DNA of 46,461 nt from an uncultured Actinomycetes bacterium (GTDB lineage: Bacteria > Actinomycetota > Coriobacteriia > Coriobacteriales > RUG033). The notes below the pieces were generated by a model that had not been told where the DNA came from, searched no databases, and was given only the letters and a program-made list of their open reading frames with translations. The position numbers were made by a program, and so were the translations under genes. Where the stretch lies: NCBI GenBank assembly GCA_900314665.1, contig OMWF01000116.1, forward strand, positions 1 through 46,461, read 5' to 3'. How positions within the stretch are numbered: position 1 is the first letter of the stretch; each line of letters opens with the position of its first letter. This document shows positions 2,103 to 14,446 of the stretch, in pieces.

Positions 2103-3906
<1,804 letters not shown>

Positions 3907-4024
3907 GTGAGCAATGATAGCATTCAATCCGGCCCTGGGCAGCGCCTTGGCGCTCGCATCGGTCAAGCCCGACCCCGCGTGCCCAGGCGCTGCCTTTCAC
4001 CATCCCGACGCAAAGAGAGCCTCC

Positions 4025-4606
4025 ATGTCCGCATCCTCTGATTTATCCTCAGACGAGAACAAGCAACCCCGGCAGCGCTCGCTCGCCCGCAGAGCCAACG
4101 GCGTCGTGACCGCCCTGCTGGTGGCCTTCTTTCTGGGCGCGCATGGCCTGCTCGGGAGCGCGTCGGCAATCGTTGCCCTCGACTCATCGCTTTCCTGGAT
4201 CGCTTGGATAGGCACAGCAGCCATCGCCGTGCACGTGTGCCTCAACGTGCGCGTCACGGTCGAGAAGCTCTCCGACCCCGAGAAGCCCCCGAGCGCGCAC
4301 AAGAAGGCGAAGATTGCGCTTCGCTGGGCGACAGGCATTGTGCTCCTCGTTACCATCGTCCTGCACATCACCCTCGTTCGCACGCACGGAGCCGGAGCAG
4401 CCTGGGCCACCCCGCCGGCCGTAGCGGCGACCGTGGTGCTCATAGCCGCGCTCTCCGCCCATGTCTTCCTCTGCCTCAAGTCCCTTATACGCGACCTGGG
4501 CGGCAGCAAGGAGCTCAAAGACAAGGTCACGCCCTTGGTGAGGGCGGTGCTCTGCGCCTTCGCGTGCTTGCTCTATGCCATGGTGGTCGCCGGCCACCTT
4601 CGGTGA
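4025..4606 (+). CDS. Hypothetical polytopic membrane protein (about 4-5 predicted TM helices)
   Basis: ORF 3914..4606. Start trimmed to ATG 4025 (MSASSDLSSDENKQ), preceded by AGAGAG. Hydrophobic segments VVTALLVAFFLGAHGLL, WIAWIGTAAIAVHVCL, IVLLVTIVLHITLV, AVAATVVLIAALSAHVFL and VLCAFACLLYAMVVAG. No recognisable family. Confidence 0.5.
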   Translation: MSASSDLSSDENKQPRQRSLARRANGVVTALLVAFFLGAHGLLGSASAIVALDSSLSWIAWIGTAAIAVHVCLNVRVTVEKLSDPEKPPSAHKKAKIALRWATGIVLLVTIVLHITLVRTHGAGAAWATPPAVAATVVLIAALSAHVFLCLKSLIRDLGGSKELKDKVTPLVRAVLCAFACLLYAMVVAGHLR

Positions 4607-4710
4607 AGCGCTTCGCGGAGTCGCTCCCCGCGCATGCCGCCGCCGAGCCGTCCGCGGGGCTTCATCACGGGAGTCGCCCCCGTCAGGCTTGATGCCCGCG
4701 CTGCGTCATT

Positions 4711-4735
4711 TATAGTAAGTTATATATAATTGACC
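4711..4735 (+). promoter_or_regulatory. Candidate promoter in an AT-rich island (TATAAT at 4725..4730) with the perfect palindrome TTATATATAA (4720..4729)
   Basis: tatagtaagttatatataattgacc is a sharp AT-rich island in an otherwise GC-rich sequence, about 45 nt upstream of the GTG at 4775. The -35 is weak. The palindrome overlapping the -10 could be an operator. Confidence 0.3.
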
Positions 4736-4774
4736 TGCTTTCGACGGCACAGCTGTGCAAGACGGGAGGAACGG

Positions 4775-5518
4775 GTGGTAAAGAGACGCATCACCGCTCT
4801 GGCGGTGGCAATCGCATGTGCATTGCTTATGCTTCCAGGAGCAGCATTCGCCGGCAACGGAAGCGGTTCCGGCGACGGTGGTGGGCAAGCGACTCCCACG
4901 CTGGTCGCTTCGATGCCAGAGAACGGCACCGAGGTCTCGCCTGCCAGTACCGAGGAGATGTGGGTCCAGTTCAGCAACAACGTCGCCGAGGCGACCGTTG
5001 CCGATGGCAACATCGAGAAGATCTCCCTGACTCATTCCGACGGGACGCCTGTCGACGTGGACGTGTTTGTCGCCGACACCCAAACCGAGCCCGATAAGCG
5101 CACGTATCTCTACATCTCCCCCGCCGACCAGCTTGAACCCGGAGCATACGTCATCACCGTGAAGGCGGGCATAACGGCCAAGAACGGCATCTCCTCCGCC
5201 ACCGATGAGACCATCTCCTTCACGGTGGCCGATGCCGCCGGTAACAGCGCGAGCTCCGCAGACGCCGCCGCAGCCCCCGCCAGCTCTGCCAGCACAGTTG
5301 CCTCCGCCAGTCCCGCGAGCAGCGCTGCAGCCTCCTCTGGAGCCGGCGAGGAAAGCTCCCACCAAGGCGCCGTGCCCGTCGCTGCCGTCGTGGTGGTAGT
5401 CATCGTCGCGGCGGTCTGCATCGCAGCCGCCCTGCGCTTCCGCAAGAAGAAGAACGACTCTCGCGCAAGCGATGACACGGCAGAGGACGCAACGCCCAAA
5501 GACACCAAGTCCGAGTAG
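4775..5518 (+). CDS. Secreted, C-terminally membrane-anchored protein with one bacterial Ig-like (SbsA/Big_5-like) domain and an Ala/Ser-rich stalk
   Basis: GTG 4775 with GGGAGGA at 4764..4770. Signal peptide VVKRRITALAVAIACALLMLPGAAFA. The pattern PENGTEVSP...MWVQFSNNV...ISLTHSDGTPVDVDV...YLYISPADQLEPGAYVITVKAGI is typical of Big_5-type Ig folds. SASSADAAAAPASSAS linker. C-terminal TM VAAVVVVVIVAAVCIAAAL followed by RFRKKKN. No LPXTG motif. Confidence 0.6.
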   Translation: MVKRRITALAVAIACALLMLPGAAFAGNGSGSGDGGGQATPTLVASMPENGTEVSPASTEEMWVQFSNNVAEATVADGNIEKISLTHSDGTPVDVDVFVADTQTEPDKRTYLYISPADQLEPGAYVITVKAGITAKNGISSATDETISFTVADAAGNSASSADAAAAPASSASTVASASPASSAAASSGAGEESSHQGAVPVAAVVVVVIVAAVCIAAALRFRKKKNDSRASDDTAEDATPKDTKSE

Positions 5519-5581
5519 CTATCCGCAGCAAAACAGCCGGGCGCGGTGGCGGCGTCCCGCATAAGCGAAGAGAGACATACC

Positions 5582-6742
5582 ATGGAGATTGCACGCAACG
5601 CGGAGGGCGGCAGATGCGAGCAGCCCGCGGAAGGCATGCCCGCACGACAGGGCTGCCAGGAGCAGTGCTCCTCGATTGTGCTGTGCGTCGACGATACAGA
5701 TGACGAGACGCGCAGCACGTCCACCGGCAAAGTGGCGGCGCTTATAGCGCAAGCCGTCGTGAGGTCAGGCGGCCGCATCCGCCTCGGCATAACGCGCCAT
5801 CAGCTGCTCTTGCGCAGCGATGTGCCCTATACCTCGCACAACTCATCGATGGCCTTTGAGGCCCAGATCCCTGTCGGCGCCATCGACAAGCTCCGCGAAG
5901 AAGCGATCGCCGTGCTCGCGGCCGAATGCGTCCCCACCGCCGACCCGGGCCTCGCCCTGGCCGTCCTCCCCGAGGCAGGCTTTGTCGGCGGGAAAGGCGA
6001 GCAGCAGCTCGAGGGGCTCATCGCCTTTGGCAAGCGCGCAAAAGTCGAGTACTGCCATAAGGAGGACGCGTACGCCCTGGCGCAAGGCATCCCCTGGGTC
6101 TCCCTCAGCGAGCACGGCGGCACAGGCCAAGGCGTCGTGGGCGCCCTGGCCGGCATCGGCTTGCGGCTCTCCGGGTCAGACGGGCGTTTCCGCGGCAAGC
6201 AACGGATCGACCAGCTGCTCGGAGAGGACGGCGGCGCCGATGCCCGCGGCGGAAAGGCAGGCCGGGGAGGCGGCGGGCACCGCCAAGGCGCGGGCGGCGG
6301 ACGTCGCGATGACGCGCCGAGGCGCAGTTCCGACCCCGTTGAAGGACAGGGAGTAGGGGCGGGGCCCCGGTTTGTATCCGTAGGCCGCATCGTCGAGAGG
6401 CTGTCGGCGTGTAAGAACGGCCCCGTCAGGGTTGTGGACGCCACGGGGGCCGTGCTGGGCGACGACGTACCCGTGCGGGTCGATGTCGTGGCTAAGTCGA
6501 TCTACCTCGGCGGCTCATTCACCATCGTCTGTTCGGTTGAAGACGGCATCGCCACGCCTCTGGAAAAGGACCAACTGGCAGATGGCGCCGGCGAAGGCCT
6601 GCTCTCTCATGTCTGCAGCAGCTTTGAGTGGGACAACGACGCCGAGGAGTGCACCAGCAGAACCGAGTCGTGCCGCAACTGCCTGCATCGCCGATGGGAG
6701 AGCTGGGGATTCAGCTGCATGGGCGACGGCCGTCGCCCATGA
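5582..6742 (+). CDS. TiaS-like protein (homologue of archaeal tRNA(Ile2) 2-agmatinylcytidine synthetase: kinase-like N-domain plus C-terminal zinc ribbon); function in bacteria unknown
   Basis: ORF 5546..6742; the ATG at 5582 is preferred. Collinear motif matches to TiaS as I remember it: VDDTDD; RHQLLLRSDVPYTSHNSSMAF; GTGQGVVGALAGIG; C-terminal CRNCLHRRWESWGFSC. The stop overlaps the permease start (ATGA at 6739..6742). The start codon and the Gly/Arg-rich middle section are uncertain. Confidence 0.55.
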   Translation: MEIARNAEGGRCEQPAEGMPARQGCQEQCSSIVLCVDDTDDETRSTSTGKVAALIAQAVVRSGGRIRLGITRHQLLLRSDVPYTSHNSSMAFEAQIPVGAIDKLREEAIAVLAAECVPTADPGLALAVLPEAGFVGGKGEQQLEGLIAFGKRAKVEYCHKEDAYALAQGIPWVSLSEHGGTGQGVVGALAGIGLRLSGSDGRFRGKQRIDQLLGEDGGADARGGKAGRGGGGHRQGAGGGRRDDAPRRSSDPVEGQGVGAGPRFVSVGRIVERLSACKNGPVRVVDATGAVLGDDVPVRVDVVAKSIYLGGSFTIVCSVEDGIATPLEKDQLADGAGEGLLSHVCSSFEWDNDAEECTSRTESCRNCLHRRWESWGFSCMGDGRRP

Positions 6743-7812
6743 GGACAGGCACCGCAAACACGTCTGCCGCCGCCACCAGAGGGAGGCGCGCACTCAGGGC
6801 AGGCACCGTCACAGTCGGAGCGTACGCCCTTCCCGTCGCACTCGTCATCGTCTCGCTGTTCATCGGCCGCTACCCCATCTCGGCAGGCGACGTGTTCGGC
6901 TCGCTCGGCGCGGCACTTGGCGTTAGCGGGGCGGCGGATTCGATCCAGGCGCGTTCGGCGGCGTACACGCTGGTGGTGAACGTGCGCCTCCCTCGCGCAA
7001 TCGCGGCGGCGCTGGTCGGCGCCGCACTCGCGGGGTCGGGCGCCGCGTTTCAGGGCGTGTTCAGGAATCCGCTCGTAAGCCCCTCGATCCTCGGCGTCTC
7101 CTCAGGGGCCGGGTTTGGGGCCGCGCTGGCCATCGTGTTCTTCTCCTCCGCAACCGCGGTCGTCGCGCCGTTCGCGTTCCTGTTTGGCGTGCTCGCCGTG
7201 ATTGCGAGCTATCTGATAGCGCGCGTCTACCGCTCGACGCCGACCATCATGCTCATCCTGGGCGGCACCATCGTCTCGGCGGTGTTCTCCGCGCTCATAT
7301 CGCTCATGAAGTTCATAGCCGACCCTGAGACCCAACTTCCCAACCTGGTCTATTGGCTCATGGGCAGTCTCTCCGCCATCGGCTGGGAGCAGTTCGCGGC
7401 GGCCATCCCCATCGCCATCGGCCTCATCGCCCTCGACGTCCTGGCCTGGCGCGTCAACATCCTCTCCATGGGCGACAAGGAGGCGCGCTCTCTGGGCCTC
7501 GACGTATTCCGCGACAAGCTGCTCATCATCGCCGCGGCGACGCTCTCGACCGCTGGCGCCGTCTGCATGTCAGGCGTCATCGGCTGGGTCGGCCTGGTCA
7601 TTCCCCATATCGGGCGAATGTTGGCGGGAAGTGACAATCGACGGCTCATTCCCCTTTCCGCCGCCGCAGGGGCCTCGTTCATGCTGGTCATCGACCTGCT
7701 GTGCCGGACGCTCTCGTCCTCTGAAATACCGATTGGCGTGTTGACGGCTCTTATCGGCGCTCCGTTCTTCGTCTACCTGCTGAAGAAGACGAAAGGCAGG
7801 GATTGGCAGTGA
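6739..7812 (+). CDS. ABC importer permease, FecCD/BtuC family (type II importer)
   Basis: ORF 6628..7812 trimmed to ATG 6739, which overlaps the upstream stop. LPRAIAAALVGAALAGSGAAFQGVFRNPLVSPSILGVSSGAG and IPIGVLTALIGAPFFVYLL are typical FecCD signatures. About 9-10 TM helices. Confidence 0.9.
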   Translation: MRTGTANTSAAATRGRRALRAGTVTVGAYALPVALVIVSLFIGRYPISAGDVFGSLGAALGVSGAADSIQARSAAYTLVVNVRLPRAIAAALVGAALAGSGAAFQGVFRNPLVSPSILGVSSGAGFGAALAIVFFSSATAVVAPFAFLFGVLAVIASYLIARVYRSTPTIMLILGGTIVSAVFSALISLMKFIADPETQLPNLVYWLMGSLSAIGWEQFAAAIPIAIGLIALDVLAWRVNILSMGDKEARSLGLDVFRDKLLIIAAATLSTAGAVCMSGVIGWVGLVIPHIGRMLAGSDNRRLIPLSAAAGASFMLVIDLLCRTLSSSEIPIGVLTALIGAPFFVYLLKKTKGRDWQ

Positions 7813-8657
7813 AGGCCGACCCGGTGCTCGTCCAGCTGGACGGAGTTTCGTACACCTATCCCCAAGCCAGCGCACCTGCGGTCGACCAGGTGACGCTTGA
7901 AGCTGGGGCGGGGACGGTCACCTGCCTCATGGGCGTCAATGGCTGCGGCAAGTCGACGCTCATCGACTGCATACTGGGTGAGAACAGCCTCACGTCGGGT
8001 CAAATCCTGCTCGACGGGACCGACATCTCGACGCTGCGCCCCTCCGCCCTCGCGCGCAAGGTCTCCTATGTGCCTCAGGTCCACGAGCGCGCGTTTCCCT
8101 ACCTGGTGCGCGACGTGGTCCTCATGGGACGCACGCCTTACCAGGGGATTCTCGGATCATCGAGCGATGCCGACCAGGAGATAGTCGACCGGGCGCTCCG
8201 TCTCTGCCGCATCGAGCGCCTGGCAGACCGCCCCTACACCCAGCTCTCAGGCGGCGAGATGCAGATGGTGCTCCTCGCCCGCGCCCTCGCGCAGCAGACC
8301 TCCTTCATCCTGATGGACGAGCCCACGGCACACCTGGACTTTAGGAACGAGCTGTCCTTCATGGAAACGGTCGTGCAGCTTGTGCGCAACCAGGGCGTCG
8401 GCGTGTTTATCGCCACCCACTCCCCCAACCAGGCGTTCTTCTTTGAGTGGAGCGGCGTGCCGACGGTCTGTACGCTGATGAGCGCGGGGCGCGTCTATCA
8501 GACGGGCGCTCCTTCCCAGGTGCTCACTTCCGAGAACCTTCACGACCTGTACGGCGTGCACGCACGCATCGTCTCGACCCCGACCAGCACCGGCAGGCCC
8601 CTCAACCAAATTCTCCTCATCTCCACGGAAGAGTGCTCCCATGACCAGAAGCGCTGA
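7803..8657 (+). CDS. ABC importer ATP-binding protein (FepC/BtuD-like)
   Basis: Walker A GVNGCGKST, signature LSGGEMQ, Walker B ILMDEPTAHLD. The track start is TTG 7803. GTG 7809 overlaps the permease TGA (GTGA) and is equally plausible. Confidence 0.9.
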   Translation: MAVKADPVLVQLDGVSYTYPQASAPAVDQVTLEAGAGTVTCLMGVNGCGKSTLIDCILGENSLTSGQILLDGTDISTLRPSALARKVSYVPQVHERAFPYLVRDVVLMGRTPYQGILGSSSDADQEIVDRALRLCRIERLADRPYTQLSGGEMQMVLLARALAQQTSFILMDEPTAHLDFRNELSFMETVVQLVRNQGVGVFIATHSPNQAFFFEWSGVPTVCTLMSAGRVYQTGAPSQVLTSENLHDLYGVHARIVSTPTSTGRPLNQILLISTEECSHDQKR

Positions 8658-9909
8658 CCAGAACAGCCGGGCGGAGCGCCCGCTCGACATCACCTGCGAC
8701 CGGCGCCGTTTTTGCGCCCTGGGGCTGCTTGCGCTCATCGCGTGCTGCGGCGCCCCGGCCGCAGCCCTGGGAGGATGCGCTCCGGGCGCAGAGACCGGCA
8801 GCTCGCCCTCAGGCGCCTCCTCTGCTGCGCAAGCCGCCAGCGATGCACTGCCGAGCAACGCCGAGGGCGCCTCACAGCCGGACACGATCGCCCTAACCGA
8901 CTCGGTCGGAAGGACGGTGGCGGTCCCCGCCTGCTGCACGCGCATTGCCGCACTCGACTCGTTCTCAGGAGAAGCGCTGGTCATGGCAGGCGCCGGCCCG
9001 CTCGTGGTGGCAGTGCCCAGGGGCGTCGCCAGCGACACCATCCTGCTTCAGCTCTACCCGGACCTCGCCACGGTGCCGTCTCCTCAGTCGGGCGGCACGG
9101 TGAACGTCGAGTCCCTGTGGGCGCTCGACCCCGACGTCGTGCTCGTGAAGCCGTCGCTGTACTACTCGCAGGAGGAGATTGGAAAGCTTGATAAGCTGGG
9201 GATGCCGTACCTGGTCATCGACTACCTGACCATCGAGGAGCAGCTCGCGGCGCTTGAGATGATCGGGAGCATCCTGCCGTCGGAGCAAGCCCAGCGCATG
9301 GCGGCGATCGTCTCGACGTACCGCTCAGGCGTCGAGCGCGTGGAAGCTTGCGCCGCGCGCATACCGGACGACGAGAGGCTGCGCGTCTACCACGCAATCA
9401 ACCAGGCGGTCATCACCGATGGACCCAGCTCGATCGGTGCCGATTGGATAACGCGAGTCGGTGGCATCGACGTCTCGGCCGTAAGCCTGGGGGCGGACGG
9501 CGGGACGGAGGCCTCTGCGAGCTCGGACAGGGGAGATTACCAGGCGACGCTCGAACAGGTCTTTGTATGGGATCCCGACATCGTTATCTGCAACGAGGCG
9601 TCGACCGCCACGTACCTGCTCAGCGACAGCAAATGGGCGGGGCTGCGCTCGGTCGCCGACGGGCGCGTCTACAACATACCCGTTGGCGCGACCCGATGGG
9701 GGCAGCGCGGCAGCGTAGAGACCTGGTTCGCGATGATGTGGCTCGGCACCACTGCCTATCCCGAATACTACGGGGAAATCGACCTGCGCGAGGAGGTTGC
9801 CGCATTCTACGGAACGGTCCTCGGCATCGACGTCGATGATGCCCTGTACGAGCAGATGCTCTCAGGCCAGGGAATGCGCAAGCAGGCCACGGGTAAGAGC
9901 GTCTCCTAG
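8641..9909 (+). CDS. ABC importer substrate-binding lipoprotein, periplasmic-binding-protein class (siderophore/heme/cobalamin type)
   Basis: RRRFCALGLLALIACCG...LGGC signal/lipobox followed by a Ser/Ala linker. VAVPACCTRIAALD, DPDVVLV, VWDPDIVI and RWGQRGSVE are typical of FhuD/BtuF-like binding proteins. The start overlaps the ATPase gene by 17 nt. Confidence 0.85.
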   Translation: MTRSADQNSRAERPLDITCDRRRFCALGLLALIACCGAPAAALGGCAPGAETGSSPSGASSAAQAASDALPSNAEGASQPDTIALTDSVGRTVAVPACCTRIAALDSFSGEALVMAGAGPLVVAVPRGVASDTILLQLYPDLATVPSPQSGGTVNVESLWALDPDVVLVKPSLYYSQEEIGKLDKLGMPYLVIDYLTIEEQLAALEMIGSILPSEQAQRMAAIVSTYRSGVERVEACAARIPDDERLRVYHAINQAVITDGPSSIGADWITRVGGIDVSAVSLGADGGTEASASSDRGDYQATLEQVFVWDPDIVICNEASTATYLLSDSKWAGLRSVADGRVYNIPVGATRWGQRGSVETWFAMMWLGTTAYPEYYGEIDLREEVAAFYGTVLGIDVDDALYEQMLSGQGMRKQATGKSVS

Positions 9910-13448: not shown

Positions 13449-14446
13449 CGGCTGGCGGCGGAGGTGCCTCTGCAGACCCCCAGCACCCACAGCTCAAAGA
13501 CGGTCTGCGCATCGGCGCCGGTCTTCATCTGACGTTCGGCCTCGGCGGCGTCCTCGAGCGCCTGGCGCAGCTCCCGGGAGGTGAAGCGGGCGGCCCAGCG
13601 GCGGTGGTCGCGCAGCTGCCAATCCTGCACCCGGGGATTGACCTTGCGGATCTGCTCGACCAGCTGGTAGCCCTCGCCCCGCTGCTCGAGCGCCTTGGTG
13701 ACGATCAGCTCCCGGATGCGCGAGACGCACCAGGAGAGCAGCCCGGGCCACGACTGGTCCTGGATGCGCGAGATGAGCAGGGCGCACCGGTGGGCGTCAC
13801 GCTGGGCGAGGGCGGCGGTCAGGTCCCAGGGCTTGACGTCGGCCACCCGCGTCACCAGGTGCTCCACGTCATCGACGCCGATGGCGGTGCCGCCGCGGGC
13901 AATGACCACGTCTGACAGCTTCTTTACCTCGGCATCGAGCTGGACCGTGTCGGTGCCCACCCGCTCTACGAGCTGCTCGGCAGCCTGCCAGTCCAGAGAG
14001 GTCCCGTGGGTCTCGGCCATCTTCTGCACCAGCTGAGGGAGCTTCTTGCCCTTCTTGGGAGTGCAATCGATGACGGATCGAGGGCCCACCTTGGCGGCGG
14101 CCTTGTAAAGACGGGTGTTCTTAGCCAGCTTGCCGGCGACCAGCGCCATCACGGTGGTGGGATTGGGATCGGCCAGATAGCTCACCAGCAGCTCAGAGGA
14201 CTCCTTGGGCAGCTTCTCGGCGTTCTTTACCACAACCAGGCGGAGGTCCGAGAGAAACGGAAGGGTGTTGGCCGCCTCCACGATGGCCTGCCCCTCGGCG
14301 CCCTGGGCACCGTCGAAGACCTCGCGGTTGAAGTCCAAGTCGCCCTCCTGGGCCACCCGGTCCGTGAGCCGGCGCAATGCCTCCTCGGCCTTGAGGGTGT
14401 CCTCGCCCACGATGAGATAAGCGGGGAGCAGCTGCGCTTTAGCCAT
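13445..14446 (-). CDS. holA: DNA polymerase III delta subunit
   Basis: ORF trimmed to ATG 14446 (MAKAQLLPAYLIVGEDTLK), preceded by GAGGAGG. Length and position immediately downstream of comEC are canonical for holA. The stop shares the CTAG at 13445..13448 with the convergent gene. Confidence 0.85.
   Translation of the reverse strand: MAKAQLLPAYLIVGEDTLKAEEALRRLTDRVAQEGDLDFNREVFDGAQGAEGQAIVEAANTLPFLSDLRLVVVKNAEKLPKESSELLVSYLADPNPTTVMALVAGKLAKNTRLYKAAAKVGPRSVIDCTPKKGKKLPQLVQKMAETHGTSLDWQAAEQLVERVGTDTVQLDAEVKKLSDVVIARGGTAIGVDDVEHLVTRVADVKPWDLTAALAQRDAHRCALLISRIQDQSWPGLLSWCVSRIRELIVTKALEQRGEGYQLVEQIRKVNPRVQDWQLRDHRRWAARFTSRELRQALEDAAEAERQMKTGADAQTVFELWVLGVCRGTSAASR

Follow-up and report, generated by a model that had tools for sequence, protein, structure and literature searches.

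The TiaS-like gene and its operon

The subject of this analysis is a 386-amino-acid protein encoded in DNA of an uncultured Coriobacteriales bacterium, RUG033 (contig OMWF01000116.1 of assembly GCA_900314665.1). We call the whole 46,461-nucleotide (nt) stretch that was analyzed the window. An earlier note, made from the sequence by eye, had taken the protein for a bacterial homolog of TiaS, the archaeal enzyme that makes agmatidine in tRNA-Ile2. We assign it to a large bacterial family, so far unnamed, in which the kinase fold of TiaS is put to use in uptake operons under tungsten-cofactor regulation. The open reading frame (ORF) is intact, contains no internal stops and yields the 386-amino-acid protein as quoted; an alternative GTG start lies at 5546. 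The TiaS-like gene is the second of five tightly packed co-directional genes, as follows.

4730 to 5518, + strand: secreted, C-terminally membrane-anchored surface protein with a Big_5 (CopC-like) immunoglobulin-type domain, first gene (Pfam Big_5, E = 1.4e-6)
5582 to 6742, + strand: TiaS-like protein, 386 amino acids (ORF translation)
6739 to 7812, + strand: FecCD-family type II ATP-binding cassette (ABC) permease (Pfam FecCD, E = 1.2e-86)
7803 to 8657, + strand: importer ABC ATPase (Pfam ABC_tran, E = 2.1e-29)
8641 to 9909, + strand: lipoprotein-type substrate-binding protein (Pfam Peripla_BP_2, E = 3.8e-11)

The stop codon of the TiaS-like gene and the ATG of the permease at 6739 overlap as ATGA (6739-6742), and further overlaps of 10 nt (7803-7812) and 17 nt (8641-8657) follow downstream, which argues that the genes of the operon are translationally coupled.

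Homology to the TiaS kinase domain

The single sequence found no match in Pfam, and phmmer returned only chance-level matches to the PDB. The family as a whole is more informative. We aligned 34 sequences of the TiaS-like family (alignment A1) and searched the resulting profile with HMMER against 177,635 PDB sequences. The matches were TiaS entries only (3u02, E = 3.5e-5; 3amt, 1.3e-4; 3au7, 1.7e-4; 4rvz, 4e-4), all confined to the kinase domain; the next match, at E = 0.5, was unrelated. An AlphaFold model of the whole protein (predicted local distance difference test score [pLDDT] 79.4, predicted template modeling score 0.75) gave the same answer when compared with the PDB by Foldseek: nine chains were retrieved at E ≤ 1e-3, and all were TiaS (5xob, 3amu, 4rvz, 3amt, 3u02, and 3au7), with 5xob best at 2.5e-8, over about 167 to 202 columns at a root-mean-square deviation of 2.6 to 5.5 Å. 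The NCBIfam TiaS equivalog model NF040849 aligns residues 32-196 with profile positions 3-154 of 422 (E = 8.8e-4), at 17.9 bits against a cut-off of 600 bits. The Pfam model PF22641 (TiaS_TCKD) does not match the window protein up to E = 10, and it matches 7 of the 34 family members weakly (best E = 5.2e-4). Judged by these profiles and the predicted structure, residues ~31-203 are a true Thr18-Cyt34 kinase domain (TCKD), remotely homologous to that of TiaS.

HMMER places D37, D38, and D40 on D8, D9, and D11 of Archaeoglobus fulgidus TiaS, and T48 on Thr18 (in numbering derived from the tagged chain). Thr18 is reportedly the residue after which the domain is named. Three motif pairs that had been proposed by eye are aligned exactly as suggested: DDTDD..STG with GIDDTDS..CTTY, RHQLL..PYTSHNSSM with RLIRLNPTIPYKTRGNG, and GVVGALAG with GLIGALAA. 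These matches go beyond chance, since the profile, NF040849, and Foldseek results all point to TiaS. Within A1, the domain's invariant residues include D37, D38, T39, D40, D41, S47, T48, G49, R72, H73, Q74, and L75, followed by Y83, T84, S85, H86, N87, S88, P122, G123, G187, A188, L189, A190, L194, R195, G201, and R204. As motifs, the family's invariants read DDTDD..STG, RHQL, YTSHNS.M, PG, GALAG.GLR..DGRFRG, and, farther downstream, K305.

The remainder of the protein has a different character. The domains are arranged as follows.

5672 to 6190, + strand: TCKD-fold kinase-like domain, residues ~31-203 (A1, profile against TiaS structures, Foldseek)
6224 to 6349, + strand: Gly/Arg-rich low-complexity linker, residues ~215-256 (pLDDT < 50 for residues 220-256; gapped in A1)
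6365 to 6586, + strand: small alpha/beta middle domain, residues ~262-335, with the invariant K305 (pLDDT > 90)
6614 to 6718, + strand: acidic Cys4 ribbon, C345-x18-C364-x2-C367-x11-C379 (A1)

The last three are without known relatives. The linker is predicted to be disordered and is missing or altered in most homologs. Residues 255-386, which we modeled separately (pLDDT 81.9) and submitted to their own Foldseek search, yielded no PDB match below E = 0.69 and no TiaS entry, so that neither the oligonucleotide-binding (OB) fold nor the zinc ribbon of TiaS was found there, and the middle domain has no detectable relative among solved structures. A TOBE/Mop-like molybdate-binding fold was considered for the middle domain and is unsupported by any structural match. 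In the Cys4 ribbon, F348, D351, D353, E356, L368, and R370 are invariant in A1 along with the cysteines, and an acidic F..DND.EE stretch stands out.

These results divide the original identification of the protein as a TiaS homolog. It stands for the kinase domain, i.e., the N-terminal ~170 residues, where the profile and AlphaFold/Foldseek searches that the note had named retrieve TiaS with significance. It is not supported for the whole protein, given the equivalog score. A fourth motif pair, matching the C-terminal cysteines to the TiaS zinc ribbon, was not borne out (HMMER score -2.2, independent E = 1.7e4, with no TiaS match in residues 255-386), and the similar total length carries no weight. 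Common to both proteins are the TCKD fold, the motifs DDTD, PY.T..N, NPG, and G..GALA, and the Thr aligned with Thr18. In contrast, the window family has invariants of its own (RHQ, SH.S, LR, DGRFRG, K305, and the acidic Cys4 ribbon), and it is bacterial and found with uptake operons and Moco riboswitches, whereas TiaS is archaeal and acts in translation. A weak match between residues 30-194 and the C-terminal half of the methanogenesis marker 11 model (TIGR03280; E = 0.023, 13.8 bits against a cut-off of 255.8) suggests a third TCKD-containing family, though that archaeal protein has another domain at its N terminus and the score lies far below the cut-off.

Could the protein nevertheless be a bacterial enzyme of the TiaS type, one that uses agmatine or a related amine to modify tRNA-Ile2 at C34, or some other RNA? 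The TCKD homology, with its conserved catalytic motif, would fit, as would the Cys4 element, whose relative position matches that of the TiaS zinc ribbon (although that alignment is not significant). However, the C-terminal half is unlike the tRNA-binding domains of TiaS, which are undetectable here, and the ~245-amino-acid short forms of the family lack any candidate RNA-binding domain. The window has no tRNA genes, and 62 of the 78 loci surveyed below show a context of transport and molybdenum/tungsten (Mo/W) genes, none being linked to tRNA. Bacteria also generally use the unrelated TilS (lysidine). We consider an RNA-modifying role very improbable. The protein is not a TiaS ortholog and most probably not a tRNA agmatidine synthetase; the earlier observation was largely right and its headline interpretation largely wrong. 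Its fallback idea, that the protein might activate a small molecule, gives the best fit to the evidence, as the conserved context is metal-cofactor uptake.

A large bacterial family with a Cys4 partner

At E ≤ 1e-3, a search returned more than 1,790 homologs, whose sources are Coriobacteriales, Eggerthellaceae, and Clostridia such as Anaerovorax. All are unnamed or "hypothetical" and none has a Pfam domain, which agrees with the expectation that no function had been assigned. A library of 1.84 billion cluster representatives contains 965 family members at E ≤ 1e-3, 649 at 1e-10, and 245 at 1e-30; counted as clusters at 50% identity, the family numbers about 650 to 965. We then scanned one genome per GTDB species and found the family encoded in at least 541 stretches from more than 540 species, including gut Coriobacteriia, Eubacterium, Syntrophomonas, Geobacter, Shewanella, and Bacillus. 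Coriobacteriia members are present, and the family is spread much more widely across bacteria. Eighty loci were kept (L numbers below denote loci, P numbers proteins); these span Coriobacteriia, many Clostridia (Anaerovoracaceae, Eubacterium limosum/callanderi, Syntrophomonadaceae, and Desulfotomaculia), Bacillus/Neobacillus, Geobacterales, Desulfobacteraceae, and Shewanella. The literature search returned no paper on a bacterial TiaS-like protein, on this family, or on the TCKD mechanism.

The family comes in two forms. Long forms of ~290 to 390 amino acids, including that of the window, carry the Cys4 ribbon as a fusion. In the short forms of ~245 amino acids (Bacillus, Thermincola, Geobacter, Shewanella, and others), the ribbon is a separate small ORF directly before or after the gene, with the pattern C..F..D.[DE].E...C.NC.[YF]RRW..F.C (e.g., L046 8811-8915, L036 8872-8976, and L049 7823-7927). 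Fused or adjoining, the Cys4 motif occurs in at least 62 of the 80 loci. In a Geobacter locus (L061 8778-9917), it forms the cytoplasmic N terminus of a membrane-anchored TupA-like (SBP_bac_11) binding protein. The ribbon is covered by no Pfam or NCBIfam model, and we regard it as a mobile, near-obligate partner of the TiaS-like protein. Two Syntrophomonadaceae loci (L070 7210-9625 and L075 7128-9443) have three short paralogs in tandem; the middle copy in L070 (7989-8735) no longer has the DDTDD, STG, and YTSHNS motifs and may be a pseudo-enzyme subunit.

Conserved gene neighborhoods

Neighbors were counted after clustering of ORFs in 78 distinct loci, the transporter counts being limited to the same strand and to 7 kb. 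A FecCD permease with a binding protein accompanies the TiaS-like gene in 52 loci and an energy-coupling factor (ECF)-type module, consisting of a double ATPase, a CbiQ-like T component, and a small membrane protein, in 12. One or the other importer is found in 62 of the 78 loci, and two more have a divergent transporter. In Shewanella and Geobacterales, the ECF module, with its double ATPase fused and its small membrane protein unannotated, often occurs together with a TonB-dependent receptor (L046 3238-7975, L082 8785-11717, and L061 9892-12106). Because three uptake architectures (type II ABC, ECF, and TonB receptor) accompany it, the gene appears tied to a cargo rather than to one transporter. 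Gene order also differs: the window and Anaerovoracaceae have the TiaS-like gene ahead, whereas Gordonibacter, Bacillus, and Syntrophomonadaceae have it in last place, a difference that argues for functional rather than inherited linkage. The closest relative (L083, 60% identity) has the gene arrangement of the window, and a Coriobacteriia relative (L084, 49% identity) lies directly downstream of a molybdopterin oxidoreductase-ferredoxin-NrfD operon. MoeA or MoeA-PBP_like genes occur on the same strand in 8 of the 78 loci.

Homologs of the Big_5 surface protein adjoin the gene in 37 to 50 loci (37 of 78 in the distinct-locus count). Half of these proteins (25 of 50 loci) have a GDG(S/T)GGG-type motif behind the signal peptide, compared with 2 of 637 background ORFs; in the window the mature N terminus reads AFA|GNGSGSGDGGGQ, right behind the signal peptide. 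The element could serve in ligand binding or tethering. Examples are L043 4087-4911, L057 8996-10240, L018 14214-14921, L046 3238-5409, and L055 2719-5409, and long insertions of G-N-G-S-G-G-G-type repeats occur in TonB receptors of Shewanella and in certain TiaS-like proteins, in the linker. A MotA/ExbB protein paired with DUF2149 is found in 9 to 10 loci, in Gram-positive hosts (for instance L003 9003-10110, L001 9074-10130, L029 6396-7794, and L040 6869-7937), which suggests energy coupling to the surface proteins.

The other recurrent neighbor is a pair of flavoproteins (DAO + Fer2_BFD and Pyr_redox_2 + DUF1667), present in 20 of the 78 loci. In P0151 (922 amino acids) and P0166 (826 amino acids), the whole TiaS-like protein is fused to the DAO + Fer2_BFD flavoprotein. 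The DAO flavoprotein is closest to type 2 glycerol-3-phosphate oxidase (4x9m, E = 1.7e-44; NF033460, E = 1.2e-76, 258 bits against a cut-off of 460), GlpA, and 2-hydroxyglutarate oxidase; given these nearest relatives, a reading as amine or opine oxidase was ruled out. The combination recalls the glycerol kinase/glycerol-3-phosphate oxidase pair, in that the TiaS-like gene is fused to or adjoins a GlpA-like flavoprotein with a Pyr_redox_2 + DUF1667 partner, but the flavoprotein is missing from the window operon and the TCKD fold is unrelated to glycerol kinase.

The TCKD and Cys4 modules might together make an ATP-dependent W/Mo storage protein, chaperone, or transporter gate rather than a cargo kinase, by a logic comparable to that of the kinase-fold Mo storage protein or the TOBE domains of ModC. 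The tight coupling to the transporter would suit such a function, the invariant acidic Cys4 module could bind metal, and the degenerate tandem paralog of L070 lacks the catalytic motifs. However, all 34 aligned sequences retain the catalytic Asp triad and Thr of TiaS, and the fusions to a redox enzyme hint at a step in metabolism. A non-enzymatic or regulatory role therefore seems improbable to us.

Association with tungsten cofactor riboswitches

A regulatory signal comes from the molybdenum cofactor (Moco) riboswitch family RF01055, whose tungsten cofactor (Tuco) form lacks the P3 hairpin. Regulski et al. (2008; PMC2408646) reported that P3-less Moco RNAs track Tuco genes. We submitted 28 loci to Rfam and found RF01055 at its gathering score in 22; our own covariance model, built from three RF01055 loci and run over 81 sources, returned the same 22 loci and no others. 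The copies lie on the gene's strand upstream of its operon, except that L058 and L063 each have a divergent one. In seven loci (L015, L019, L027, L034, L058, L061, and L082) the riboswitch directly precedes the TiaS-like gene. The P3 hairpin is deleted in all 14 of the RF01055 alignments that were inspected. In L082 and L061, it is the ECF module that is placed behind a Tuco riboswitch; an ECF-type system within the Mo/W regulon appears to be undescribed so far.

Two loci have three copies each: L063 (258-805) and L075 (2917-3045, 9808-9939, and 14814-14947). A molybdopterin oxidoreductase follows the TiaS-like gene in L075 and, together with an XdhC-like protein (identified by eye only) and a TsaA-like protein, is under the control of a further Tuco riboswitch just downstream. 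Double and triple P3-less copies in one locus, seen also in L069 (775-1090), recall the triple arrangement in Syntrophomonas wolfei, whose triple-riboswitch operon was described as containing "other genes of unknown function" (PMC2408646). In E. limosum, according to Schut et al. (PMC11725836), all five Tuco riboswitches are without P3, two of them control "Fe ABC-type" (FecCD-type) operons, and fetABC1 is induced by tungsten limitation. These fetABC1/2 operons may instead encode MolBC-A-like tungsten-pathway importers. The family is joined to the Tuco/Moco regulon by the P3-less RF01055 that precedes homologous operons; it is named or analyzed in neither PMC2408646 nor PMC11725836.

Relationship of the transporter to MolBC-A

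MolBC-A (HI1470/HI1471/HI1472) of Haemophilus influenzae is a type II ABC importer for molybdate/tungstate (PMC4031551), and its components are among the closest solved relatives of the window transporter. The best match to the permease is MolB (HI1471; PDB 2nq2, E = 8.4e-69), which leads by 20 orders of magnitude over the heme, hydroxamate, and B12 permeases (1.8e-48 to 1.4e-41). For the binding protein, the best match is an uncharacterized structure (4ovk, E = 1.5e-22), and MolA (HI_1472; 3psa/3psh, 2.9e-16) is second. By sequence the window transporter falls in with MolBC-A, and its predicted cargo is Mo/W. It differs in its cytoplasmic TCKD partner, which is not described in the MolBC-A literature we examined.

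Is the importer an iron system after all? In such a scheme, an iron/siderophore importer would be placed under Tuco control only to fit the iron supply to tungstoenzymes rich in iron-sulfur clusters, and the TCKD protein would process a ferric chelate. The family assignment of the importer (FecCD/Peripla_BP_2), the TonB receptors alongside the gene in Shewanella and Geobacter, and the E. limosum authors' reading of two Tuco-controlled "Fe ABC-type" operons (PMC11725836) all speak for iron. However, the permease is far nearer to MolB than to the permeases for heme, hydroxamate, and B12, the gene has MoeA and TupA-like neighbors and fusions, and fetABC1 reacts to tungsten limitation (PMC11725836). 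The surveyed loci showed no genes for iron regulation or siderophore biosynthesis. On balance, we think iron-chelate handling quite unlikely.

A pterin-type precursor is another candidate cargo. Here the importer would bring in a dephosphorylated or oxidized molybdopterin- or Moco-related compound and not the metal. Its phosphate would be restored by the TCKD enzyme and its redox state or side chain set right by the flavoproteins, after which MoeA would insert W or Mo. In the thiamine pyrophosphate, flavin mononucleotide, and B12 regulons, cofactor riboswitches often govern such transporter-plus-kinase salvage pairs. Type II ABC, ECF, and TonB systems, all of which accompany the gene, typically carry vitamin-sized cargo, the fused flavoprotein is similar to enzymes whose target is a CHOH-CH2-O-phosphate moiety, and MoeA adjoins in 8 loci. 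Set against this, no bacterial Moco or pterin uptake system was found in the literature searched, MolB and MolA handle oxyanions, and in L061 the Cys4 module is fused to a TupA-like binding protein of the oxyanion type. Taken together, a pterin salvage kinase is unlikely.

Proposed role

We propose that the TiaS-like protein is a cytoplasmic ATP-dependent accessory enzyme of a tungsten/molybdenum acquisition operon. We give this reading a probability of about 0.6 and hold the chemistry less firmly than the context. ATP-dependent phosphoryl chemistry is plausible because the TCKD fold and its motifs are common to TiaS; by analogy, the domain would use ATP as TiaS does, giving AMP and pyrophosphate with phosphoryl transfer and possibly autophosphorylation of Thr48. 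The enzyme would phosphorylate or otherwise activate the imported cargo at the cytoplasmic face of the transporter. This cargo may be the tungstate/molybdate oxyanion, to which the TupA-like and MolA-like binding proteins point. More likely, it would be a hydroxylated organic metal carrier, which is favored by the flavoprotein partner and the TonB receptors; the ECF/type II architectures, along with the TonB receptors and the fused flavoprotein, likewise suggest a larger hydroxylated organic compound, either a metal carrier or a pterin precursor. Activation could trap the cargo and free the metal for MoeA-dependent cofactor synthesis, with the acidic Cys4 ribbon acting as a metal- or partner-binding module.

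Several observations weigh against this proposal. The cargo signals conflict: the flavoprotein fusion indicates an organic substrate and the TupA-like fusion an oxyanion. FecCD/Peripla_BP_2 systems usually transport iron chelates, heme, or B12. The sequence-level E-values for the TCKD are marginal (1e-3 to 1e-5), so the homology is remote, and it is from this homology that we infer catalysis. The tungsten link comes from comparative genomics of homologous loci, mostly in Bacillota and Desulfobacterota. The window itself has no MoeA gene and no Moco riboswitch: RF01055 is absent at the gathering score from the whole window and at E ≤ 1 from positions 3500-6000. Nor was a riboswitch found in any of the Coriobacteriia loci surveyed, and the gene-carrying loci of E. 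callanderi and E. limosum have none in the fetched flanks. Finally, MolA binds molybdate with only low affinity (PMC4031551), and Schut et al. interpret fetABC1/2 as iron uptake (PMC11725836).

If the organic cargo is real, the operon could represent a new acquisition route, in which tungsten (or molybdenum) is taken up as an organic complex or a pterin precursor is salvaged. The Big_5 protein or a TonB receptor would capture the cargo, the type II ABC or ECF importer would take it in, and the TiaS-fold kinase with its Cys4 partner, often joined by the glycerol-3-phosphate-oxidase-like flavoprotein, would dismantle or re-activate the carrier. We put this forward tentatively, as a minority view. 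Were it true, the TCKD fold would be a small-molecule kinase in metal-cofactor metabolism, and the tungsten pathway would include several "iron" ABC transporters that Tuco riboswitches control.

To our knowledge, the TCKD fold was so far known only from one archaeal tRNA enzyme. It is now found in a widespread bacterial family with a consistent genomic signature distinct from that of TiaS. The accessory enzyme proposed here adds a candidate enzymatic step between W/Mo import and cofactor insertion, suggests that Tuco-controlled "iron-type" ABC operons belong to the tungsten pathway, and offers a handle on the true cargo of MolBC-A-like transporters. Gut Coriobacteriia and Eubacterium metabolize drugs, polyphenols, and lactate by means of their W/Mo enzymes.

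Additional observations

The rest of the window is housekeeping (among others lepA, ilvD, comEC, holA, thiI, pyrF, carAB, pyrC, a class I aminoacyl-tRNA synthetase, and Fe-ADH), none of it informative, and no other Rfam elements were found in it. Between lepA, on the minus strand, and the operon lies a 230-amino-acid ORF with predicted membrane helices (3914-4606), a candidate gene, perhaps belonging to the operon, with a sub-threshold match to Sdh_cyt (E = 3.6e-5, 24.3 against 25.8 bits). An Actinomycetes metagenome-assembled genome (L003) has a fluoride riboswitch (RF01734, 44.5 bits) at 13959-14032, a few kb downstream and probably unrelated. In about 12 Anaerovoracaceae loci (L016 11839-16579 and others), genes for a MoxR AAA ATPase, a DUF58 protein, and a transglutaminase-like membrane protein stand behind the importer genes, and large LRR_5/Big_2/fn3 surface proteins are encoded between the riboswitch and the TiaS-like gene in this group.

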